A stretch of DNA of 64,000 nt, taken from assembly GCA_965200315.1 (NCBI GenBank), contig OZ241362.1:3232001-3296000 (forward strand). Reading direction: 5' to 3'. Positions 4,006-15,018 of the stretch are shown piece after piece (the first letter of the stretch is position 1; every line of letters begins with the position of its first letter). The notes under the pieces are model-generated. The model saw only the letters and a program-made list of their open reading frames with translations. It made no database searches and had not been told where the DNA came from. Source of the DNA: Candidatus Latescibacterota bacterium. GTDB taxonomy: Bacteria; Latescibacterota; UBA2968; UBA8231. A program made the translations under genes and the position numbers.

Positions 4006-4845
4006 ATGGAGCTTTTGCCGACGACCAATGCCGACGGGCGAGATGTCGTCCCGATGACCGAGGCCCAGCAGTACCTCTTCGACCTCAAGGGGTTTGTCCT
4101 CTTGCCCGCGCTGTTGAGCGAAGCAGAGCTGATGCTGATCCGCGCCCACCAGATGAAATTTCTCTACGAACGCGAGTCCCTGCCGCCGGACGAGCGCGAC
4201 AATCACGGCGGCCCGGCGCAAATTTTGCTCGACCATCCGGCGGTAGTGGGCGTGCTCAACGAGGTGCTCTCTCATCAGGCGCTGGCCAGCGAAGCCTGCT
4301 ATGGGTTTCGCTACGACCACACCTATACCAGTCATCGCCAAGCCGGGCACGACAACTTCGGCCCGCACGGCGGTGGCGGGTACTTCAACTTTCGCGGCAA
4401 CTCGCACATCTACCAGATGCAGCCGGGCAAGGTGCATTCCGGCCTGACGCGGGTAGTGTGGGAGCTCAACGAAGTCGGCGAGGGCGACGGGGGCACGCTT
4501 TTTCTGCCGGGCAGCCACAAGGCCGCTTTCTCCCGGCCCGACGAGCTGAGCGAGCGCGATAGTGCGCTGTGGGAGAGCTATACCTGCCCGGCCGGTTCGG
4601 CCGTGATTTTCACCGAGGCCCTGTGCCATTCGGGTACGCGCTGGACCAACCAGCAGCGCGACCGGCTGAGCTTGTTCACCTGTTACGACACCGTCAATTC
4701 CAAGTGGGGCAAAGGCTGCCCGCCCGCCGAAGTGATCGCCTCGTTTCCAGAGAAGCGTCGCACGCTCTTCCGGGGCGTGTGGCACGGGATGAGCGATGTG
4801 CCCGGCATCAACAAATACTACGAAGTAGCTAACCAAGCCGTTTGA
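4006..4845 (+). CDS. PhyH-family Fe(II)/2-oxoglutarate enzyme with atypical HGG motif
   Basis: FDLKGFV N-terminus, GGTLFLPGSHK, AGSAVIF...H; first metal motif reads PHGG. Confidence 0.8.
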   Translation: MELLPTTNADGRDVVPMTEAQQYLFDLKGFVLLPALLSEAELMLIRAHQMKFLYERESLPPDERDNHGGPAQILLDHPAVVGVLNEVLSHQALASEACYGFRYDHTYTSHRQAGHDNFGPHGGGGYFNFRGNSHIYQMQPGKVHSGLTRVVWELNEVGEGDGGTLFLPGSHKAAFSRPDELSERDSALWESYTCPAGSAVIFTEALCHSGTRWTNQQRDRLSLFTCYDTVNSKWGKGCPPAEVIASFPEKRRTLFRGVWHGMSDVPGINKYYEVANQAV

Positions 4846-4865
4846 GCGCGACGCAAGAATTCTGC

Positions 4866-7592
4866 ATGAGCGAAAAAGTTCTCTTCCTGCTCGATGGCAT
4901 GGCGTTGGTCTATCGGGGCCATTTCGCCTTGATCCGCAATCCGCGTCTGACCTCAAAGGGCATGAACACGTCGGCCGTTTTTGCCTTTGCCAACACCTTG
5001 CTCTCCATCATCGAAAAGGGCGAGCCGACACATATCGCCGTCGTCTTCGACACACCTGAGCCCACGCACCGGCACCGCAAGTACGAAGAATACAAAGCCC
5101 AGCGCGAGGCGATGCCCGAGGACTTGAGCCAAGCACTGCCTTATGTATTCCGGCTCTGCGAGGCGTTTAACATTCCGGTCTTGCGCGAGCCGGGGTGGGA
5201 GGCCGACGACGTGATCGGCACGTTGACCAAAAAGGCCGAGGCCGAGGGGTTTGCGACGTACATGGTCACGCCCGACAAAGACTACGGCCAGCTCGTTTCC
5301 GAGCGGAGCTTTATGTACAAGCCGGGGCGCGGCGGCGACGAGGCCGAGGTTTTGGGGGTGCCGGAGATTCTCGCCCAATGGCAGGTCGAGCGGATCGACC
5401 AAGTGATCGATGTGTTGGGGCTGATGGGCGACTCTTCGGACAATGTGCCGGGCGTCCCTGGGATCGGCCCCAAGACAGCGCAAAAGCTCATCGCCCAGTA
5501 CGGCAGCGTCGAAGAGTTGCTGGCGCATACCGACCAGCTCAAGGGCAAGCAGAAACAGAACGTAGAGGAACACCGGGAACAGGCCCTCCTTTCCAAGGAA
5601 CTGGTCACCATCGAGTGCAATGTCCCGCTGGACGCGGGGCTGGCGGATTTGGTTAAGGCCGAATGGGACCGCCAGAAGCTAAAGGCCCTCTTCACTGAAT
5701 TGGAATTCAATACGCTGGGCCGGCGGCTCCTCGGCGACGATTTTAGCACTGAAAAGGAGCAGGACCACGGCCCGCTCAAAGGGGTGGCGGATGTGGAGCA
5801 CGACTATCAGCTCGCCGATGCGCCCGACAAGCGACGGGCGTTGATCGCGGCGCTATTGGAGCAGCCCGCGTTTTGCTTTGACTGCGAGACCAACGGCCTC
5901 GACGTCCGGCGATGCGACTTGATTGGCTTGGCCTTTTCGTGGGCACCGGGCACGGGCCACTACGTGCCGCTGCCTCGGGAGCGGGCCGAGGTGCTAGCCG
6001 TTTTGGAGGAATTCCGCCCGGTTTTTGCAAGTAGAGAGAGCGAAAAAATCGGCCACAACCTCAAGTACGATCTCAGCGTCCTCCGCTGGCACGGCATGCG
6101 GGTCGAAGGCCCGTTCTTCGACACCATGCTGGCGGCGACCTTGGCCGAGCCAGAGCTGAGACGCAGCATGGACGAGCTGGCCAAGAGCCTGCTCTCCTAC
6201 TCACCCAAGCCCATATCCGAGCTGATCGGCGAGCGCGGCGGTGAGCAGCTAACGCTCTTGCAGGTGCCGGTGGAGCAAGTGGCCGAGTACGCCTGCGAGG
6301 ACGCGGACATTACCTTCCAGCTCGCTGCGGCGCTGCGGCCGAAAATCGAAGCCATGGATCAGCAGCGCGTTTTTTACGAGATCGAGGCCCCGCTCCTGCC
6401 GGTGCTGGTCGATATGGAATACGAGGGCATCCGCATGGAAACGGCGGCCCTCTCCGCGCTCTCGCGGCAGTTTGAGGAGGCCATTGAGCAGGCTGCTGAG
6501 CGCGTCTTTGAGCTAGCCGGCGAGCGCTTCAACCTCAATTCGGGCCATCAGCTCGGGACTGTGCTGTTTGAGAAGTTGGGGCTGGACCCCAAGGCGCGGC
6601 GGACGCAGAAGACCGGCCAGTACCAGACGGGCGAGCAGATCTTGCGCCGCTTGTCCCATCGCCACGAAATCGTGCGGCAGGTGCTCGACTACCGATTGCA
6701 CACCAAGCTCAAGTCGACGTATGTGGATCAGCTACCTAGCGCGGTCTTTAAGAACACTGGGCGCGTCCACACCAACTACGAGCAGCTGATGACCGCTACC
6801 GGGCGCATGAAATCCGACCGCCCGAACCTCCAGAACATCCCCATCCGCAGCGAGCAGGGGCGGGAAATCCGCCGTGCCTTTGTGCCGCGCAGCAGCGAAT
6901 ACCAGCTTTTCTCGGCCGACTATTCACAGATCGAGCTGCGGATCGCCGCTGCGCTTAGCAGTGACGAGGGGATGCTGGACACGTTTAGGAGCGGTGGCGA
7001 CATCCATGTAGCGACCGCGACAAGGATCTACGGGGTTGCCGAGGAGCAGGTGACGGCGCAGATGCGGCGGCAGGCCAAGACGGTGAACTTCGGTATCATC
7101 TATGGGATTTCGGCGTTTGGACTGGCCGAGCGGCTCGACATTTCGCGCGGAGCGGCCAAAGATCAGATAGACGAGTACTTTGCTCAGTATCCCGGCGTGA
7201 AGTGTTACATCGACGAAACCGTGGAGTTCGCCCGCGACAAGGGCTACGTCGAGACGGTGACCGGGCGGCGGCGCTATCTGCGCGACATTAACTCGCGCAA
7301 CGCCACCACCCGCAAAGGGGCCGAGCGCAACGCCATCAATACCCGCATTCAGGGCACGGCTGCTGACATGATTAAGCTGGCGATGAGCCGCATTCACCGG
7401 CTGCTGCTGAAGGAGAGGTTCCGTTCGGCCATGCTGTTGCAGGTCCACGACGAATTGGTCTTCGACCTGCACCGGGACGAGGTGGAGACTCTACCGCCGC
7501 TAGTCGCGCGCGAGATGCGCGAGGCCCTGCCGATGGAGGTGCCGGTGGACATTGAGGTGGGGATGGGTGAGAACTGGCTGGAGGCGCACTGA
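4866..7592 (+). CDS. polA: DNA polymerase I
   Basis: 5'-3' exonuclease (LLDG, EADDVIGT, GDSSDNVPGVPGIGPKTA), 3'-5' exonuclease (FDCET), polymerase motifs ADYSQIELR, KTVNFGIIYG, LQVHDELVF; ATG 4866 preferred over TTG 4842. Confidence 0.98.
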   Translation: MSEKVLFLLDGMALVYRGHFALIRNPRLTSKGMNTSAVFAFANTLLSIIEKGEPTHIAVVFDTPEPTHRHRKYEEYKAQREAMPEDLSQALPYVFRLCEAFNIPVLREPGWEADDVIGTLTKKAEAEGFATYMVTPDKDYGQLVSERSFMYKPGRGGDEAEVLGVPEILAQWQVERIDQVIDVLGLMGDSSDNVPGVPGIGPKTAQKLIAQYGSVEELLAHTDQLKGKQKQNVEEHREQALLSKELVTIECNVPLDAGLADLVKAEWDRQKLKALFTELEFNTLGRRLLGDDFSTEKEQDHGPLKGVADVEHDYQLADAPDKRRALIAALLEQPAFCFDCETNGLDVRRCDLIGLAFSWAPGTGHYVPLPRERAEVLAVLEEFRPVFASRESEKIGHNLKYDLSVLRWHGMRVEGPFFDTMLAATLAEPELRRSMDELAKSLLSYSPKPISELIGERGGEQLTLLQVPVEQVAEYACEDADITFQLAAALRPKIEAMDQQRVFYEIEAPLLPVLVDMEYEGIRMETAALSALSRQFEEAIEQAAERVFELAGERFNLNSGHQLGTVLFEKLGLDPKARRTQKTGQYQTGEQILRRLSHRHEIVRQVLDYRLHTKLKSTYVDQLPSAVFKNTGRVHTNYEQLMTATGRMKSDRPNLQNIPIRSEQGREIRRAFVPRSSEYQLFSADYSQIELRIAAALSSDEGMLDTFRSGGDIHVATATRIYGVAEEQVTAQMRRQAKTVNFGIIYGISAFGLAERLDISRGAAKDQIDEYFAQYPGVKCYIDETVEFARDKGYVETVTGRRRYLRDINSRNATTRKGAERNAINTRIQGTAADMIKLAMSRIHRLLLKERFRSAMLLQVHDELVFDLHRDEVETLPPLVAREMREALPMEVPVDIEVGMGENWLEAH

Positions 7593-7597
7593 GGGGC
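7561..7597 (+). repeat. Direct repeat copy 1 (polA 3' end, 37 bp)
   Basis: ggatgggtgagaactggctggaggcgcactgaggggc; recurs at 9763-9799 with one mismatch. Confidence 0.95.
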
Positions 7598-7666
7598 CGA
7601 GCGGATGCTGGGAAGCTATGATTGTACGCAGGAAAATATGGCACGTGCGTCTGCGAGGGACGCAAA

Positions 7667-9772
7667 ATGACCGAATACTCAGCGTCTAAAAAAGTCAAGC
7701 CGTCGTCCGGTGTTGTGAGCGACGGACGCCAGTTGACACTGGACGAACTAATTCGTCCGCGGCAAACGGAACACAGTCTCAGTATAGATCGCGCCTTTCC
7801 CGAGGAATTTGTCAACGACCTTTCCCGTCAGGAGGTGTTCAACAAACATCTCTTTCGTCCAAACACGTATCTGCATAAATGGTGGGCGCGACGATGCGGG
7901 TCCACGTTTCGCACCATACTCAAGCAGTTTGCGGCCAACCGCGAGTGTCGCGATTACTATGCGCCTGGCGGGCTGGAAGGCATAACTGTGCTCGACCCAA
8001 TGATGGGAGGCGGCACGACTCTGCACGAGGCGATTCGCCTCGGCGCGAACGTCATCGGTGCGGATATAGACCCCATCCCGATTGTGCAGGCCCGAGCGTC
8101 ACTTACTCAGGTCGAGTTGACGGGTTTGCGAGTAGTTTTTGATCGGTTCTTCGCTGATTTGCACGATAGCTTGGGGCCTTATTTCCAGACCGAATGTCCT
8201 ACCTGTGAGCAGACTGTGGATAGCCAATACTTGCTACACGGGCTGCGTAAAAAATGCGCTTGTCGGAATGTCGTGCAGATTGACCAGTACGATTTGCGAC
8301 ACGAAGACGACGCAACAATCAGCATTTGTCCTGAGAGCGGGGAGATTTCTCGCAATCAAAATGGGCAGAAGACCGCCGTCGAAACGTTGTCTCCGGCGAC
8401 CGGAATGGTCGGTGCAACCGCGAATCTGATTACCAAAGCTGAAAAAGAATGCCCTAGCTGCGGTCAGAAGTACGAGGAACTCCTTGACTTGCCATTTTAT
8501 GCGCGCTATACGCCGCTTGCGATTGTTGCGACCTGCCCCGAGCACGGCAACTTTTTCCGCTCGCCTAGTGAAGAGGATTTGGCGCGAATCAAGCGGGCCG
8601 ACCAGCGGCGTAGTGAACTAGATTTCGGGCCGTTGGAGGATTTTAGGGTACATTACGGCCCCAAGTCCGGCGACCTTCTAAAGCACAATGTCCACTCGTA
8701 CCTCGACGTTTTTTCATCCCGTCAGCTACTGTACTTGCATCACGCGATTCGGCAACTGCGCGACTACGCGGGCATAGATAAGCTGACCCTCGGGATGCTT
8801 GTGTCCACGTCTTTAGAATTCAATGCCATGCTCTGCGGGTACAAGGGTTGGTACAAACGCCGTCCGGGCGCGATTCGGCACGTTTTCGCTTTGCATGCCT
8901 ATTCGTTCCAATACACGGTGCTAGAGAACAACCCGGTCAATCCTCGCAGGTCGTCCGGCAACCTGCAATTGCTCTTTCGCGATCGGATCGAGCGGGGACG
9001 CAAGTGGTCGGTATTGCCTGTTGAACGGAAAATTGGGGAAGACGGCAAAAGAGAGTTAGTCAAGATACCGGGAGAAGCGGATGACGGCGTTGAAGTTTTC
9101 AATCAGGCTGATCTCATGCGTGATCGGAGCCGGTTTTGGCTCATTCAGGGCGATTCGCAGAGTTTGCCTCTCGACGACCATTCCGTAGATATGATAGTGA
9201 CCGATCCTCCCTATTACGACAGTGTGCAATACAGCAATCTGGCGGCTTTTTTTCGGGTATGGCTGACGCGCCTGCTTCCCGACGAGGCCGAGTGGAGTTA
9301 CGACGAATCCGACAGTGCTGTTGCGACAAAAGCGACCGCTGGTGTTAGCAATTTTATGAGGGTACTCGCGGGAATTTTCGCAGAGTGCGGGCGCGTCCTA
9401 AAGAACCAAACTGGGCGGATGGTATTTACTTTTCACCACTGGGATCCCAGCGCATGGGCCGAACTCACGTTGGCTCTCAAAAGCGCTGGGTTTAGGCTGA
9501 TGAACGCTTACGTAGTGTACTCCGAACATCCCATCTCAGTACACATTCGCAACTTGAACTCAATCCGGCACGACAGCGTTTTGGTTTTCGCTCTCGAAGG
9601 CAACAGCCCGTCCGCTCCGTGGACACCTTTAGACACTATTGACACAAACGACAGCGGAACGTTTTGTCGGCAATGCAACGAAACGCTGGGCTGGTTGTTA
9701 GAGAGTGCATTCTCGCCTGCCGAAATTCGCGCCATTTGGAAAAATCTCATTAGAGAGGGAACGGATGGCTGA
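7667..9772 (+). CDS. Zn-ribbon-containing DNA amino-methyltransferase (COG1743/DUF1156-like)
   Basis: HKWWARR, motif I LDPMMGGGT, motif IV TDPPY, Cys clusters CPTC, CAC, CPSC, CPEH; ATG 7667 preferred. Confidence 0.88.
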   Translation: MTEYSASKKVKPSSGVVSDGRQLTLDELIRPRQTEHSLSIDRAFPEEFVNDLSRQEVFNKHLFRPNTYLHKWWARRCGSTFRTILKQFAANRECRDYYAPGGLEGITVLDPMMGGGTTLHEAIRLGANVIGADIDPIPIVQARASLTQVELTGLRVVFDRFFADLHDSLGPYFQTECPTCEQTVDSQYLLHGLRKKCACRNVVQIDQYDLRHEDDATISICPESGEISRNQNGQKTAVETLSPATGMVGATANLITKAEKECPSCGQKYEELLDLPFYARYTPLAIVATCPEHGNFFRSPSEEDLARIKRADQRRSELDFGPLEDFRVHYGPKSGDLLKHNVHSYLDVFSSRQLLYLHHAIRQLRDYAGIDKLTLGMLVSTSLEFNAMLCGYKGWYKRRPGAIRHVFALHAYSFQYTVLENNPVNPRRSSGNLQLLFRDRIERGRKWSVLPVERKIGEDGKRELVKIPGEADDGVEVFNQADLMRDRSRFWLIQGDSQSLPLDDHSVDMIVTDPPYYDSVQYSNLAAFFRVWLTRLLPDEAEWSYDESDSAVATKATAGVSNFMRVLAGIFAECGRVLKNQTGRMVFTFHHWDPSAWAELTLALKSAGFRLMNAYVVYSEHPISVHIRNLNSIRHDSVLVFALEGNSPSAPWTPLDTIDTNDSGTFCRQCNETLGWLLESAFSPAEIRAIWKNLIREGTDG

Positions 9773-9799
9773 GAACTGGCTGGAGGCGCACTGAGGGGC
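9763..9799 (+). repeat. Direct repeat copy 2 (duplicated polA 3' end)
   Basis: ggatggctgagaactggctggaggcgcactgaggggc; contains the methyltransferase stop codon TGA 9770-9772. Confidence 0.95.
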
Positions 9800-9867
9800 G
9801 CAGTTTGAGGTAGTTATACGCTTAACATGCACTGCATACGTTTTGTCCCAATGTAAGGAGAGTATCC

Positions 9868-10527
9868 ATGGGAAAGTGGGTTCAAATCAACCCGGCTTAC
9901 GTCAACAGTAAAACCGATGGCCCAATCGTGACGCTTGGCAATCAATCCGTACGCTTCAGCCAAGGGGCGGCTCGCAAGATCGGCGGTGATCAGGTCACGC
10001 GAGCTAGCATACATATTGATTATGAAAACCGTCTAATCGGATTTAAATTCTTTGACAGGGATGAGCCGAACACCTACAAGCTCATGAAGGGCAAAGGTGG
10101 AAGTTTCGTCATCCGTATTAAGCAATTGACTAAACAACATCCTTGGATTGGTTCAGCTATGGAAACACCCATTGAGGAGCGACGGTTCGAGCTCAATACC
10201 GATGATAACATCTACTTCATTCAGCTAATGCCGTCCTTCGAGGAAAGCGTGTCCAGCGTAGAGTCCATACCGAACAATGCGAGAGGCATATACCGCTTAC
10301 TAGACAGCTCTGAAACGATTGTGTATATCGGACAGGGGCGTATTGCCGACCGCATCAGGGAGCACATGGGTAAGGACTGGGGAGAGTCGGTACGTAAGAT
10401 AGAGTACTCCAAAATTGACAACGAGAAAGACAGAATTCAGTGGGAAAAATACTGGCTGGCTAGGTTTAGCGGCGAGCATGGGGAGCTTCCTAGACACAAC
10501 GCTATCGGCGGCATTCACAGGCACTGA
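9868..10527 (+). CDS. GIY-YIG nuclease with uncharacterised N-terminal domain
   Basis: GIYRLLDSSETIVYIGQG..RIREH, downstream E and terminal N (LPRHN); AAGGAG RBS; lower GC than flanks. Confidence 0.8.
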   Translation: MGKWVQINPAYVNSKTDGPIVTLGNQSVRFSQGAARKIGGDQVTRASIHIDYENRLIGFKFFDRDEPNTYKLMKGKGGSFVIRIKQLTKQHPWIGSAMETPIEERRFELNTDDNIYFIQLMPSFEESVSSVESIPNNARGIYRLLDSSETIVYIGQGRIADRIREHMGKDWGESVRKIEYSKIDNEKDRIQWEKYWLARFSGEHGELPRHNAIGGIHRH

Positions 10528-10636
10528 GCAATAAGGAAATGCCGCCATCTCAAAGTGGTTGTCTATGTGGCCATAAATGGTGACGTATTCTGTCTTGTGA
10601 GTTATATAGTTCTTTAAAAGAAAGGCACTAGCAACA

Positions 10637-11686
10637 ATGGGCGAGCGCATTCGCGGCTTTGGCAGCGACAATCACGCCGGGGTCCACCCCGAGGTCATGG
10701 CGGCCTTACAGCAAGTCAACGTGGGGCACGTGCATTCCTACGGGGACGATCCCCACACCGCCGAAGCCATCGCGCTTTTTCGCGAGGTGTTGGGGTCGGA
10801 GGTGGAGGTTTTCTTTGCGTTCAACGGCACTGGAGCCAATGTGACGGCCCTTACCGCACTCACGCGCTTTTGCGACGCGGTGATCTGCTCGGATACCGCT
10901 CATCTCCACATCGACGAATGCGGTGCCCCCGAACAAGTGGCCGGCGTCAAGCTCTTGCCCGCGCCCGCGCCCGATGGCAAAATTACCCCCGAGGGAGTCG
11001 CCGCCCATATCGCGGGTCGCGGCGATGAGCACCAAGTGCGTCCCCGCGTGGTGTCGCTTACACAGGCTACGGAACTGGGTACTGTTTATGCGCCGAGCGA
11101 GATTCGCGCTATCGCCGACTGCGCCCATGAACACGAGATGTATTTGCACGTCGATGGGGCGCGGATTGCCAACGCAGCCGTGGGTTTGGGGTTGGAACTG
11201 CGGGAGGTTACTGGGGATTGCGGAGTGGATGTGCTGTCGTTTGGCGGCACTAAGAACGGCCTGATGATAGGGGAAGCCGTGGTCTTTTTTAAGCCTGAGC
11301 TAGCCGAGGACTATCGCCGTGCGCGCAAGCAGGGGATGCAACTGGCCTCTAAGATGCGCTTTGTTGCCGCGCAGTTTACGGCCCTGCTGACCGACGACCT
11401 GTGGCGTCGGAGCGCCCAGCACGCCAATGCCATGGCGCAGGTGCTGGCCGAGCGAGTGCGGCCCATTCGCGGGGTGGAGGTGATCTACCCAGTGCAGGCT
11501 AACGCCGTCTTCGCCCGCTTGCCGGTAGATGTGATTCCCATTTTGCAGCAGGAGTTTTTCTTTTATCCCTGGAATGCCACGCGAGGCGAGGTGCGCTGGA
11601 TGACCTCGTTCGACACCGAGGCAGAGGACATAGAGGCGTTTGCGACGCTGATTGAAGAAACTATGGCGGAAAGGAGCCTATCGTGA
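10637..11686 (+). CDS. ltaE: Low-specificity L-threonine aldolase
   Basis: FGSDN, YGDD, GTGAN, LHVDGARIANA, SFGGTKNG (PLP lysine), SKMRF. Confidence 0.9.
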   Translation: MGERIRGFGSDNHAGVHPEVMAALQQVNVGHVHSYGDDPHTAEAIALFREVLGSEVEVFFAFNGTGANVTALTALTRFCDAVICSDTAHLHIDECGAPEQVAGVKLLPAPAPDGKITPEGVAAHIAGRGDEHQVRPRVVSLTQATELGTVYAPSEIRAIADCAHEHEMYLHVDGARIANAAVGLGLELREVTGDCGVDVLSFGGTKNGLMIGEAVVFFKPELAEDYRRARKQGMQLASKMRFVAAQFTALLTDDLWRRSAQHANAMAQVLAERVRPIRGVEVIYPVQANAVFARLPVDVIPILQQEFFFYPWNATRGEVRWMTSFDTEAEDIEAFATLIEETMAERSLS

Positions 11687-12516
11687 TCATCGACACCCAT
11701 ACCCATTTCTACGATCCCACGCGGCCCGAAGGTGTGCCTTGGCCACCGGCTGACAACGCGCTGCTCTACCGCACGGTACTGCCCGAGCACCACCGCGCCC
11801 TCGCCGCGCCCGAAGAGGTGACCGGGACGGTGGTGGTGGAGGCTAGTGCGTGGTTGGCGGACAATCAGTGGATTTTGGATTTGGCCGCTGATGACCCTTG
11901 GATAGTCGGGCTGGTGGGCCATGTCGATCCCAACCGGGAGGCCTTCAAAGGCGACATCGACCGCTTGGCGGCAAACGCGCTCTTCCGCGGCATTCGCTGC
12001 GGCGGCGGGTATTTTGCCGACTTGGAGGCCGGGTCTTTTCTCGCCGACATGGAGCACCTCGTCGCACGGGACTTGGAACTCGACGCGCTGGTGGGGCCGG
12101 CGGACTTGGCCCAAGTGGTGGAACTGGCCCGGCGACTGCCCGAATTGCGCATCGTCATCAACCACTGCGGCGGGGTTGGGGCCGATGGCGGAGATCCCGA
12201 TCCGGCATGGTTGGACGCCATAGCCCAAGCGGCCGAGCAGCCGCAGGTCTTTATGAAGGTCTCGGCGATCATGGAGCAAAGCAGGGTAGAGCCGGTGCCG
12301 GAAGATCTGGACTTTTATCGCCCGATCCTCGACGCCATGTGGGACGCCTTTGGCGCAGACCGCGTGGTCTACGGCAGCAATTGGCCCGTCAGCGACCGAG
12401 CGGGGAGTTTCAAGGCCGCCATCTCCATCGTCAAAGCGTACTTTGGCGAAAAGGGCGCGACCGAGAAGTACTTCTGGCAAAACAGCAAGGTCGCCTACAA
12501 GTGGCCAGATCGCTAA
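11683..12516 (+). CDS. Amidohydrolase_2 family protein
   Basis: IDTHTHF, IVINH, FGADRVVYGSNWPV. Confidence 0.88.
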   Translation: MIIDTHTHFYDPTRPEGVPWPPADNALLYRTVLPEHHRALAAPEEVTGTVVVEASAWLADNQWILDLAADDPWIVGLVGHVDPNREAFKGDIDRLAANALFRGIRCGGGYFADLEAGSFLADMEHLVARDLELDALVGPADLAQVVELARRLPELRIVINHCGGVGADGGDPDPAWLDAIAQAAEQPQVFMKVSAIMEQSRVEPVPEDLDFYRPILDAMWDAFGADRVVYGSNWPVSDRAGSFKAAISIVKAYFGEKGATEKYFWQNSKVAYKWPDR

Positions 12517-12526
12517 GGAGGCTCCC

Positions 12527-13825
12527 GTGAAATTTTGGGTTTTCACCCACAGCGACCAGCCTCTCGAACACTGGCTCGAAGGCTACCAGCAGCGCTTCGA
12601 CGCTTGGGAAGAAGGCGGCGTCGAGGGTATTATCGTCGGCCGCATGCAGTTTAAGCAGGACGATGGTTCGATGATCTCTAGCTATCCGGTCGATACCAAA
12701 CTCTACGCCGATCACGGCGTCGAGCCGCCGGAGGAGACGCCCCGCGACTTGGTAAAAGAAAAAAAGCTCCAAGCCATGATGGACGATGCCGCGGCGCGTG
12801 GCTGGCAGATTATGACCTTTGGCATGGGCCGCGGCGGGCTGGTCGGGCTGGAGGATTTGATCGCGTTCTACCCGCAGGTCCACGGCGTCATTATCGACGG
12901 CCCCGGCGAAAACCACTACGAGCTAGCGTTCCACCACGGCGGGGAGCTTTTGGAACTCCGGCCCGGCGAGGATCGGCTTTTTGCCGGTATGGGGGCCGAT
13001 GTCGGGCGGATGCAGCGCGGCATTGACCATCTGCGGCAGGCCCTGTGTCGGCTGACGCCCCAGCGGGTGCGCTACCTCGCCCAAGGCGGCCTGTTTTCGG
13101 TGCTGAATTTGATTGACCTCGACGAGGATGGGCTGTATTGGTTGCGGATGCGGCAAGAGAAGTCGCGCCGCTCTTGGGAAGACGCCCGCACCATTGTCGA
13201 TCAGGCCTCGCGCAAGATCGAGTTGGGCGGCATTCCGCGCACGGCTGTCTTTTCTGGGTTGACCGGGCAGGACTACGAGCGGATGGCCGGGTATTTCGAT
13301 TATATACTGCCCAAGCACTACTACTGGCATCGCGGGTTTGACGGGCTTTATGGCACGGTGGCGCGCTGGGTGCAGACGATTGGGGAGTGGAATCCGGGGC
13401 TAACGGAAGAGGACGCTTTTGCCGTGGTCGGGGCGCTTTTTGGCATCAAACTGCCTCAGGTGCGGACGCTTTTTGACTTGGAGGCGGGCTTTCCCGACGA
13501 GTTTTTCAGCGAGGTCGTGTACGGCGAAACGCGCCGGGCCATAGAAGCGGCTGGTGTCGATAAGGTGATTTGCTGGGTTTCGACTGGTCGCACGCCGCAC
13601 GCTGGCGATCCCATGCCCGCCCGCGATTTGCTCGGCATTTTGCGGGCGTCCGCGGCGGCTGGGCTCAAGCGTTTTGTCTTTCATCCAGAGGTTATGGGCG
13701 CGTCTGAGTGGCGGGTTTTGACAGAAATGTGCGGGACGCCGTGGCGCGAGGATCCGAGCGGGTATTGGCCTTCGGGTACTGAGAAGCCAGATGCTTTTAA
13801 TGGGGGACGGAAGAAAGGGAATTAG
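12527..13825 (+). CDS. Hypothetical protein (possible TIM-barrel)
   Basis: Long ORF with host-like codon usage; GTG start at 12527 after AAGGAGG. Confidence 0.7.
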   Translation: MKFWVFTHSDQPLEHWLEGYQQRFDAWEEGGVEGIIVGRMQFKQDDGSMISSYPVDTKLYADHGVEPPEETPRDLVKEKKLQAMMDDAAARGWQIMTFGMGRGGLVGLEDLIAFYPQVHGVIIDGPGENHYELAFHHGGELLELRPGEDRLFAGMGADVGRMQRGIDHLRQALCRLTPQRVRYLAQGGLFSVLNLIDLDEDGLYWLRMRQEKSRRSWEDARTIVDQASRKIELGGIPRTAVFSGLTGQDYERMAGYFDYILPKHYYWHRGFDGLYGTVARWVQTIGEWNPGLTEEDAFAVVGALFGIKLPQVRTLFDLEAGFPDEFFSEVVYGETRRAIEAAGVDKVICWVSTGRTPHAGDPMPARDLLGILRASAAAGLKRFVFHPEVMGASEWRVLTEMCGTPWREDPSGYWPSGTEKPDAFNGGRKKGN

Positions 13826-14348
13826 CTGAACGCAAAATGGCAACAAGCTGTTGCCAAATTGAATCAGCAAGATCCGGTTCTCAGTTTTGCTAAAGCTTGT
13901 CGCAGAACTTCTGGAACAGGCTGCTCCAGACCTGAGATCGCGACAGTGTAGCAACAATTGACTGCCGAATTTGGATGAGGTTACAGCTATAGACTTGAAC
14001 GATTTGAGATGCGGATGGCCTCGTGAATACTATTCTGCGTCTGCCTGTGTCCTTCTGCGGATCGTCTCTTAAATGATGTGCTATATTCTGCTCTCACTCG
14101 GATGATACATTTTGCCAAGGCCTTCCCCGAAGGCTGGTCGTATTTGTCTTTTGTCTGTTATCAATCTAGAGTAGGTTCCTAATCTCAGGAAATCGTCGCG
14201 CTCCGCGAGGCGATTGTGCGGCTACAAGAGAGGCTAGAAACGGACAAGTAGATGATCCGTTTTGCGACCATTTCCCCGACCCTGAGATAGTAGTATCGCT
14301 GGTACGACAATTAAGCTGGTTGCACTTAAGGGAATTAGGAGATTAAAA

Positions 14349-14987
14349 ATGTACGACGAATGGAAGCCCATCTACTCGGCTTTAGTCACCGACATCATGG
14401 ACCAACTCGGCTACCGCGATCAGGCCATGACTCCCGATATCCGGCCCAGCCGCCCCGACGCCTTCATCGCCGGCCCGGCGCTCACCATCGACGCGTACGC
14501 CGATGCTAGCCCCGACCCCGACCCCTACGGCCAAATTTTTGCCGCCTACGATCAAGCCAGCCCCGGCGACGTGTTCGTCATCGCCACCAATGGCGAAGAG
14601 CGCTCTGGCCTTTGGGGCGAACTTCTCTCCACGGCGGCCCAAGCTCGCGGCGTCGAATCCGTGCTCACCGACGGCTTGGTCCGCGATGTGCGCCAGATGA
14701 ACGCCATGGGCTACCACTGCTTCTGCAAAGGCTATTCGCCGCTCGATTCGGCGGGCCGCATCCTCGCCAAAACGATCAACCAACCTATCACCTGCGGCGG
14801 TGTGCAGGTTCACCCCGGCGATTTTATTCTAGCTGACTACGATGGCGTGGCGGTGATTCCGGCGGCGATCCAAGGCGAAGTCTACGAAAAGGCCATGGAA
14901 AAGCTCGCCGGGGAAAACGTCGTGCGCGATGAATTGGCTGCGGGGAAATCGCCGCGGGAAGTCTTTGATCGCTACGGGATATTGTGA
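14349..14987 (+). CDS. RraA/HMG aldolase family protein
   Basis: WGELLS, DGLVRD, GDFILADYDGVAVIP; AGGAG RBS. Confidence 0.88.
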   Translation: MYDEWKPIYSALVTDIMDQLGYRDQAMTPDIRPSRPDAFIAGPALTIDAYADASPDPDPYGQIFAAYDQASPGDVFVIATNGEERSGLWGELLSTAAQARGVESVLTDGLVRDVRQMNAMGYHCFCKGYSPLDSAGRILAKTINQPITCGGVQVHPGDFILADYDGVAVIPAAIQGEVYEKAMEKLAGENVVRDELAAGKSPREVFDRYGIL

Positions 14988-15018
14988 TTGCTTCTAAATG
15001 AAGGAGAGACCTGCACCC

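Follow-up and report, generated by a model that had tools for sequence, protein, structure and literature searches.

The window analysed here, a stretch of 64,000 nucleotides (nt) of Latescibacterota DNA (G000:C1:3232001-3296000; genome G000 is one contig of 5,359,245 bases, and its sequencing-run labels lead to sponge metagenomes), holds a direct repeat at the 3' end of polA, the gene of DNA polymerase I. An orphan type II DNA methyltransferase (MTase) gene lies between the two copies, and a gene for a GIY-YIG-type protein (GIY gene) separates the second copy from ltaE. On comparing the polA-ltaE interval across the genus, we consider it probable that this arrangement is a recombinant of two alleles of a single slot and that the repeat is the scar of their joining. 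If so, the repeat is the product neither of an integrase nor of an MTase cassette that inserted itself.

The repeat and the joint behind polA

A repeat search placed the two 37-nt copies at 7561-7597 and 9763-9799, 36/37 identical and spaced by 2202 nt, exactly where the initial annotation had seen a polA 3' end and its downstream copy; the second-best pair in 6500-11500 was 23 nt long and only 78% identical. With up to 3 mismatches allowed, the exact 30-nt core of the repeat (7568-7597 = 9770-9799) occurs 2 times in the window and 0 times in each of 100 shuffles, and the last 23 nt of this core have exactly 2 occurrences in the whole genome. The interval is laid out as follows, with R-M for restriction-modification, REase for restriction endonuclease and aa for amino acids:

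4842..7592, + strand: polA, the intact gene of DNA polymerase I; Pfam DNA_pol_A (E 2e-151) and both exonuclease domains, 5'-3' and 3'-5'
7561..7597, + strand: repeat copy 1, the genuine 3' end of polA with its last 10 codons, the stop and 5 nt; single in empty-site relatives
7598..7666, + strand: spacer from the polA stop to the MTase ATG, part of the left junction of the R-M unit allele; homologous in 8 unit alleles
7667..9772, + strand: type II DNA methyltransferase, 701 aa, orphan; Pfam N6_N4_Mtase E 1e-11; PADLOC MTase_II and DUF1156_MTase
9765..9776, + strand: remnant of a NotI-family REase, start codon and first four codons; relatives run on into a 282-aa REase
9777..9799, + strand: polA-tail stub, the truly duplicated part of copy 2 (may begin at 9770); 23/23 identical to 7575-7597
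9800..10619, + strand: GIY module, with leader 9800-9867, gene 9868-10527 (219 aa) and trailer to ~18 nt before the ltaE ATG; aligns with relative G004 from the stub to the ltaE leader
10620..11686, + strand: conserved ltaE leader 10620-10636 and ltaE 10637-11686, the right core flank; Pfam Beta_elim_lyase E 1.8e-55

The initial annotation had named a misassembly, with reads failing to span both copies, as the outcome that would undo it. We ruled this out, because single Logan contigs of X2 and X3 (runs from two studies, neither of them the likely source; near-identical records could be source DNA) each cover 7300-10700 in one piece with 0 differences.

Copy 2 is a composite. In relatives, the 3' end of the MTase gene reads ...GGATGGCTGAGAAC... 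directly into the REase gene, both at the polA site and at an unrelated second locus (locus B); in every relative, at both loci, this MTase end and REase start consist of the string that makes up the left 14 nt of copy 2, or of one close to it. The sole mismatch between the repeat copies falls within these 14 nt, and there copy 2 has the base of the R-M unit. Because the same string stands at both loci in relatives, the left 14 nt with the mismatch are native to the unit. Judged by this comparison, the MTase stop, a TGA at 9770-9772 that had been rightly placed inside copy 2, and the left part of the repeat are native cargo sequence, and the polA-derived part of copy 2 comes down to 9777-9799, or at most 9770-9799 (23-30 nt). 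The two parts meet at TGAGAAC (9770-9776), a perfect 7-nt microhomology between the region of the fourth REase codon and the polA tail of G000, which becomes 13/14 with its left neighbours. This is an illegitimate joint at microhomology beside a homologous anchor, the polA and ltaE flanks being 86-95% identical among alleles, as in homology-facilitated illegitimate recombination (HFIR).

Where else does a second polA tail occur? The C-terminal end of polA (...GENWLEAH*) is kept across the genus (tails of 25 genomes compared), and a polA-tail profile built from 28 tails and run on 36 stretches, 29 of them with a polA end, found a second tail only in G000 (E 1.2e-5) and G004 (E 2e-5). The stub stands 5' of the GIY gene in 2/2 genomes that have this gene, and the profile found it at the polA site in 0/9 other genomes with the R-M unit. 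The stub of G004 is longer (at least 46 nt) and decayed, occupies the same place 5' of the GIY gene, and is joined to MTase codon ~93, not to the REase start; the MTase fragment of this genome has 78-93 codons and contains TAG. By sequence, the stub belongs to the neighbouring GIY module. The proposal in the initial annotation that the repeat arose by insertion of the MTase cassette did not hold, given the unit-native left end and TGA of copy 2 and the 9 other unit genomes without a second tail.

We rejected a third repeat at the GIY stop, where the open reading frame (ORF) ends at 10527 and GCACTGAG stands at 10521-10528. This 8-mer has genome counts of 92 and 100 on the two strands, compared with ~82 expected, and the polA-tail profile has no match there; the caution already voiced, that such a short match may be chance, was well placed. 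In a single observation, G004 has a C/T change at both the polA-stop and the GIY-stop 8-mer places.

A Pfam scan of the six neighbour products (genes from 4006 to 12516: PhyH, PolA, MTase, GIY-YIG, Beta_elim_lyase and Amidohydro_2) gave 0 integrase, transposase or recombinase domains, in agreement with the earlier statement that no integrase or transposase is adjacent. Rfam had 0 matches over 7000-15000. The G+C content, ~0.62 in the flanks, is lower over the MTase (0.53) and lowest over the GIY gene (0.48).

Alleles of the polA-ltaE slot

The polA end was located in 40/41 relatives, and up to 12 kb downstream were examined in 24 genus genomes; searches with the MTase, the GIY protein and ltaE added further genomes, for a total of 31 genus genomes. 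Their polA-ltaE intervals fall into these states:

Empty gap, 90-160 nt (about 125) from polA stop to ltaE start: 7/31 (G003, G006, G010, G012, G022, G023, G045)
Empty-type spacer with ~160 extra nt: 1/31 (G013)
This MTase present: 11/31 (G000, G002, G004 as a fragment, G005, G007, G008, G014, G021, G042, G043, G044)
Different R-M system in the gap: 3/31 (G009, G011, G020)
Other content of 34 kb, 3.9 kb and 1.4 kb: 3/31 (G001, G015, G016; the 34 kb in G001)
polA not followed by ltaE in the DNA examined: 4/31 (G017, G018, G024, G019)
Gap state undetermined: 2/31 (G041, G046)

The cargo of G009, G011 and G020 is a NotI-family REase (E 5e-60 to 2e-61) and a D12-class MTase, with or without a DpnII/MboI-like gene. 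Non-homologous R-M systems therefore stand between the same polA and ltaE flanks (11 vs 3 genomes), which is allelic substitution. The ltaE leader is common to empty and occupied alleles, and the repeated sequence is single-copy at empty sites: one polA tail is found in the 7 empty genomes and in all other genus genomes with a polA end, G000 and G004 apart. The initial annotation had called the polA 3' end a variable insertion slot and had expected empty sites and different cargo on aligning the interval across relatives. Because the allele series in the 31 genomes holds both, with 7/31 empty and differing cargo, this expectation came true, and the relatives do not all share the polA-MTase-GIY-YIG-ltaE order. 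In this genus, whose bacteria are associated with sponges, the polA-ltaE spacer is probably a slot where restriction-type genes are exchanged by recombination. Two further spacers stand apart: in G019, ~0.9 Mb separate polA from ltaE and the two genes have opposite orientations, suggesting that an inversion had a breakpoint in the slot, and the extra ~160 nt of the G013 spacer hold a long inverted repeat and may be a small palindromic insertion.

The MTase ORF is open from 7622, with an ATG at 7667, and has the AdoMet-binding motif first and a DPPY motif near residue 527; orthologues of 88-95% identity occur in 12 other genus genomes. In G014 a 282-aa gene comes next after the MTase, its ATG overlapping the MTase TGA (Pfam NotI E 9.5e-9; PADLOC REase_II). 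MTase and NotI-family REase form a unit of ~3 kb with the stop/start overlap ATGGCTGA, the same at locus B. The state of the REase varies among the unit-bearing genomes:

Full length: G014, G043
One in-frame stop: G002
First 12 codons absent from the alignment: G005
Remnants only: G007, G008, G021, G044
State hidden by contig end: G042
Absent: G000 (cut off after the fourth codon), G004

Thus, the REase was lost repeatedly, leaving orphan MTases. The insert of G000 holds only the MTase between the repeats, with 4 codons of the REase, and so lacks an R gene beside the M gene. Of the two stacked single-gene cassettes proposed at first, the stacking of two modules stands, but the MTase is half of an MTase and NotI-family REase unit rather than a single-gene cassette. 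Raw reads of X23, a related strain, contain a 72-nt in-frame skip in the MTase 5' region (7747-7820, 5 reads) and a joint going back 492 nt (8653-9144, 3 reads); both are strain variants inside the MTase gene.

At locus B the whole ~3-kb unit is found in G003 (L070 about 6445-9517) and G019 (L071), between two paralogous genes of ~830-860 aa; the locus is empty in G000 (C1:1307357-1307395). A 15-nt direct repeat surrounds the unit in G019, and its target is single-copy in the empty locus B of G000. Because the unit sits at the polA site and at locus B with a 15-nt target duplication, it moves without a recombinase gene of its own. Could an integrase encoded elsewhere have used an attachment site in the polA tail, with the repeats as attL and attR? 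Integrase-borne islands typically lie between direct repeats that rebuild the 3' end of a gene, and the locus B target weakly resembles the polA site over 9 nt (TGAGCGGCC vs TGAGGGGCC). However, none of the six neighbour genes encodes an integrase or transposase, and by the Pfam scan of these genes the element neither contains nor adjoins a gene for a tyrosine or serine recombinase. Both locus B repeat copies equal the empty-site sequence, indicating target duplication and not a fixed attP core. Moreover, copy 2 has REase coding sequence as its left part, a second copy is lacking in 9 unit-bearing alleles, and the stub lengths of G000 and G004 differ. Site-specific integration is highly improbable on these grounds.

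How did the MTase and the GIY module come to lie in tandem? The left junction with its ~70-nt spacer is homologous, indels allowed, in 8 alleles (G000, G002, G014, G021, G044, G042, G043 and G007), which points to a single origin of that junction, and G043 keeps ~75 nt of empty-type spacer to the right of the endonuclease. Together, the common left junction and this right spacer argue that the unit allele arose once from the empty allele. With such a single origin the structure of G000 would have to be recombinant, and the repeat would follow as the scar of allele stacking, from recombination of the R-M unit allele with a GIY allele.

From these joints and alleles we infer the recombination route, the direction of allele entry and the existence of a bare polA-GIY-ltaE allele. 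Three alleles would have taken part in the history of the slot: (i) an empty one with a spacer of ~125 nt; (ii) one with the ~3-kb type II R-M unit, MTase and NotI-family endonuclease with overlapping stop and start; and (iii) a putative one with the GIY-YIG nuclease gene directly behind polA. One crossover would have been homologous, in polA or in ltaE, and the other illegitimate, at TGAGAAC between the first codons of the endonuclease and the polA tail of the GIY allele. The real polA end and the MTase would thereby be retained and the endonuclease removed, with a polA-tail stub of 23-30 nt left before the GIY gene; in G004 the illegitimate joint would have fallen inside the MTase instead. 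Homologues of ComEC and DprA are present in the genome, as they mostly are in the control genomes too, and lend weak support to recombination based on DNA uptake. Ku is absent, and we rejected end joining of the Ku type for want of a Ku domain in the genome.

The same repeat might instead be a true target duplication. In that case, de novo insertion into a chromosome with the order polA-GIY-ltaE would have placed the MTase-REase unit behind polA and doubled at least ~50 nt of the polA end; G000 would later have lost the endonuclease by deletion between TGAGAAC repeats, and G004 by a deletion from MTase codon ~93. The repeats do bracket the unit, the unit made the 15-nt duplication at locus B, and the longer stub of G004 would fit an originally longer duplication; ~11 other cargo blocks in G000 lie between exact direct repeats of 30-70 nt, 2 of them verified against empty sites, and the portions of PMC2853133 drawn on here describe the phenomenon for all R-M types. 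However, the left junction with its ~70-nt spacer is common to 7 alleles that have neither stub nor GIY gene, and a second insertion would need the same base and the same spacer. Unit alleles also hold the empty-type right spacer, not the GIY type, and the stub is present in 0/9 other unit-bearing alleles. We regard a target duplication at this site as unlikely.

Several observations weigh against the recombinant-allele reading. A bare polA-GIY-ltaE allele was found in none of the 132 class genomes or the phage records, and a scan of JGI metagenome contigs for the GIY gene returned only 2 spurious 17-residue matches. G000 and G004 agree at 545/660 nt of the GIY gene, 59/68 of its leader, 257/298 of the polA end, 940/1044 of ltaE and 17/23 of the stubs; divergence of the GIY module is thus close to that of the polA end, which also fits one old event and separate deletions, although an old event would leave the G000 stub (23/23 to polA) oddly undecayed beside that of G004 (17/23 between stubs). 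Trees of either flank do not make G000 and G004 sisters and instead group G004 with G008 (support 0.94 and 0.99), and a sliding comparison of the flanks revealed no clear imported or donor tract. Duplication at insertion also keeps some standing, because at locus B this unit did duplicate 15 nt of its target. Finally, the organism is uncultured and its uptake of DNA would be a presumption, and the data would fit either direction and either one old event or two.

The joined modules may be read together with polA. RNA-library contigs cover 7300-8548, from polA into the MTase, and 9325-10049, from the MTase over the stub into the GIY gene; they end at 10524 and resume at 10636, and such contigs do not prove transcripts, as DNA may be in the library. 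A promoter and terminator scan found nothing on the + strand between polA and ltaE, and the whole is compatible with read-through from polA. Among ~150 raw reads of X23, 0 carried a joint skipping the 2202 nt, at a depth of 5-10 that gives little power.

The GIY-YIG protein

The GIY gene is carried by 2/31 genus genomes (G000 and G004) and, by family profile, by 2/132 class genomes. Pfam matches of its product fall below threshold (DUF7508 E 6.5e-5, GIY-YIG E 0.0035), and the protein has no PADLOC or NCBIfam match and no match in 50,697 phage records. An exhaustive search (E up to 0.001) returned 308 representatives, most of them ~220 aa long with two domains; the three other close proteins are P0002, P0003 and P0005. 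In an alignment of 61 family members, G140, Y142, Y153, G155, R162, E193 and N211 are invariant or nearly so. An AlphaFold2 (AF2) model of the 219-aa protein (pLDDT 90.1) gives the C-terminal domain a GIY-YIG fold, whose best structural match is the plant Grx N-domain (Z 11.1, root-mean-square deviation 3.9, 99 aligned), with further matches to UvrC (Z 8.8), T4 EndoII (Z 7.3), I-TevI (Z 6.4) and R.Eco29kI (Z 6.3). Fold and catalytic residues, which define the GIY-YIG superfamily, are thus both found, in the model, the Z scores and the motif columns. The N-terminal domain is beta-rich and has weak matches only, to MraZ (Z 5.2) and plant B3 domains (Z 3.4-3.5), a likeness that we take as a weak lead from the model and not as an assignment. 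Sequence and model suggest that the protein is probably a stand-alone sequence-directed nuclease of a family so far uncharacterised. It has its fold in common with I-TevI (1ln0), T4 EndoII (2wsh) and R.Eco29kI (3mx4) through the C-terminal domain, and its domain order is reversed compared with I-TevI.

Might the protein be a new restriction partner of the MTase? The existence of paralogous MTases leaves room for such a partnership. However, G004 retains the GIY gene beside an MTase that is only a broken fragment, and the partnership is unlikely.

A nuclease of this kind could also have driven its own spread. In break-driven homing, it would cut alleles without the GIY gene near the polA end, and repair would copy the gene with the adjoining polA tail, priming at microhomology where foreign DNA was resident. 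The confident GIY-YIG domain of the model, with I-TevI, T4 EndoII and R.Eco29kI among its matches and a separate N-terminal domain beside it, would suit such a role, as would the position of the gene directly behind an essential, conserved gene and the stub that accompanies it in 2/2 genomes with two different left joints. Against this, the gene has reached only 2/31 genus genomes while 7 sites are still empty, and cleavage of the empty site is a prediction from sequence. The other family member with known context, from a metagenome-assembled genome of Terriglobia (single-protein scan), sits in a low-G+C islet beside a GmrSD-type restriction gene and not behind a conserved gene, phage records gave no match, and the matches of the N-terminal domain are weak (Z 3.5-5.2). 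Homing is therefore a doubtful explanation, to which we give little credence.

Cargo between direct repeats elsewhere and comparison with known systems

The initial annotation had proposed a genome scan for other duplicated gene ends that flank cargo. We searched G000 for exact direct repeats of at least 22 nt, 0.4-40 kb apart, and, with one CRISPR region and low-complexity repeats taken out, obtained 195 rows, of which the majority were diverged paralogues or further CRISPR arrays. By eye, 19 isolated pairs with unlike flanks were picked, and examination of 11 loci covering 12 pairs, with 48 ORFs scanned, indicated that 12 pairs bracket cargo, one of them doubtfully:

67-nt repeat: AAA_21 ATPase and DUF3226
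37-nt repeat: Fic protein
66-nt repeat: three dynamin-family GTPases, 10.5 kb, with a transposase fragment
48-nt repeat: MazF; the repeat is a gene end with its stop
34-44-nt repeat: Schlafen/AlbA_2 protein between hsdM and hsdS of a type I hsd operon; the repeat is the hsdM end
44-nt repeat: ResIII and N6_N4_Mtase pair between two ABC transporter genes
70-nt repeat: AAA_21 ATPase
42-50-nt repeat: AAA_14/DUF4143 ATPase
50-nt repeat: AAA-ATPase_like/PDDEXK_9 protein
44-59-nt repeat: ATPase_2/DUF234 protein
69-nt repeat: N6_N4_Mtase and Eco47II REase, with P63C and an IS1595 transposase
59-nt repeat: 6.3-kb block with TrkH/TrkA; no G+C contrast, doubtful

Comparison with empty sites of relatives covers 2/12 pairs, ResIII/Mtase and MazF. 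The ResIII and N6_N4_Mtase pair, a type III-like R-M system (L093, C1:4226378-4230841), is confined to G000 and G004; the flanks meet directly in 24 genus genomes, with an overlap of 64 nt that equals one target copy, and 5 divergent genomes are unclear. As judged from these alignments, insertion with long target duplication is seen at this locus in clean form. On either side of the MazF/PemK cassette (L091, C1:3885373-3886107) stands a 48-nt copy of the 3' end and stop of the gene upstream. G012 has this target once, and G001 and G042 carry the same duplication; in G005 a further block of ~540 nt precedes a second stub, and six other genomes have the MazF cassette at another locus without a flanking repeat of at least 12 nt. 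The ten other sites lie at 895986, 2066637, 3050803, 4175473, 4735162, 5030408, 5080869, 5085272, 5155052 and 5157744, and their cargo is mostly of low G+C.

Other repeated sequences were seen along the way. A ~130-nt element stands beside the MazF cassette (L091 about 2116-2252, C1:3886115-3886251) and at 9 or more other places in G000; its copies are 75-86% identical, many occur in G000, G019, G045, G046 and others, and it looks like a miniature repeat family. Large CRISPR arrays lie at C1:~129000-147600 (~18 kb) and ~594600-600400, with a common repeat that ends ...GGGGATTGAAAC; the latter array has spacer blocks duplicated at offsets of 623 and 690 nt. Within the window, ~520 nt at 13826-14348 have a G+C content of 0.47, no ORF of at least 70 aa and no Rfam match, and lie between two genes of normal G+C.

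Counted across the genome, such scars may be a useful marker for integrase-free defence islets in sponge symbionts. Could capture of defence cargo without an integrase, with 30-70-nt target duplications, be a systematic, break-driven process of this symbiont lineage, in which the GIY protein is a homing-type nuclease that opens the polA-ltaE slot and co-converts the polA tail? We think this improbable. If true, it would be a bacterial chromosomal counterpart of free-standing phage homing endonucleases, one that makes its site a hotspot for further cargo.

Integrase-borne islands and integron cassettes also line up serial cargo behind a conserved gene and restore the gene end. Unlike these, the polA-ltaE slot has no integrase, no attC-like sites and no constant core, and the repeat sequence differs by locus. 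It offers a natural example of restriction-type genes that move and decay without recombinases. One slot can be traced through an empty state, an intact R-M pair, several independent REase losses that left orphan MTases, replacement by other systems and tandem stacking, with a joint readable at base level.

In the sections drawn on here, Furuta, Abe and Kobayashi (2010; PMC2853133, which cites Nobusato et al. 2000 as its reference 37) describe R-M genes between long direct repeats whose target is single-copy in relatives and which carry no mobility gene, as insertion with long target duplication; they leave the mechanism open and suggest that double-strand breaks are involved. The polA-ltaE case resembles these in its restriction-type cargo, lower G+C, lack of a mobility gene and repeats that are single-copy in empty relatives, and their Haemophilus influenzae examples likewise have a repeat that overlaps a gene 3' end. 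Their definition, as given there, asks for a target duplication above 30 bp, R and M homologues, an insert below 20 kb and no other mobile-element gene. The spacing of 2202 nt and the six neighbour products agree with the last two. On length, the repeat of 37 nt contains 7-14 unit-native nt on its left and a duplicated target of 23-30 nt, compared with at least 46 nt for the stub of G004. In contrast to long target duplication, only 23-30 nt are truly duplicated here, the insert holds M only, the stub is part of the GIY module and the joint lies in the REase start; these last two features point to recombination between alleles and away from duplication at a first insertion.

The same sections of PMC2853133 describe unrelated R-M systems at one locus in Xanthomonas and at E. 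coli hsd as allelic substitution. Here, too, one slot between conserved genes holds unrelated R-M systems or nothing; it differs in that two alleles lie in tandem, with a gene-end stub at the seam. HFIR makes joints of 3-10 bp in transformable bacteria, according to the part of PMC6382021 used here, which has Meier and Wackernagel 2003 among its cited works. One homologous anchor and a short microhomology joint are found here as well (7 bp vs 3-10 bp); that source reports HFIR in the laboratory in Acinetobacter, Streptococcus and Pseudomonas, whereas ours would be a case read from the sequence of an uncultured organism. The polA-ltaE case is therefore a case of the already known class of long target duplication and allelic R-M substitution, in the form of HFIR. 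To that class it adds an apparent target duplication, textbook-looking at first sight, that is partly native cargo, which bears on how repeats are scored in surveys; a stub that belongs to the neighbouring module; and about a dozen scars near defence-type genes in one symbiont genome.

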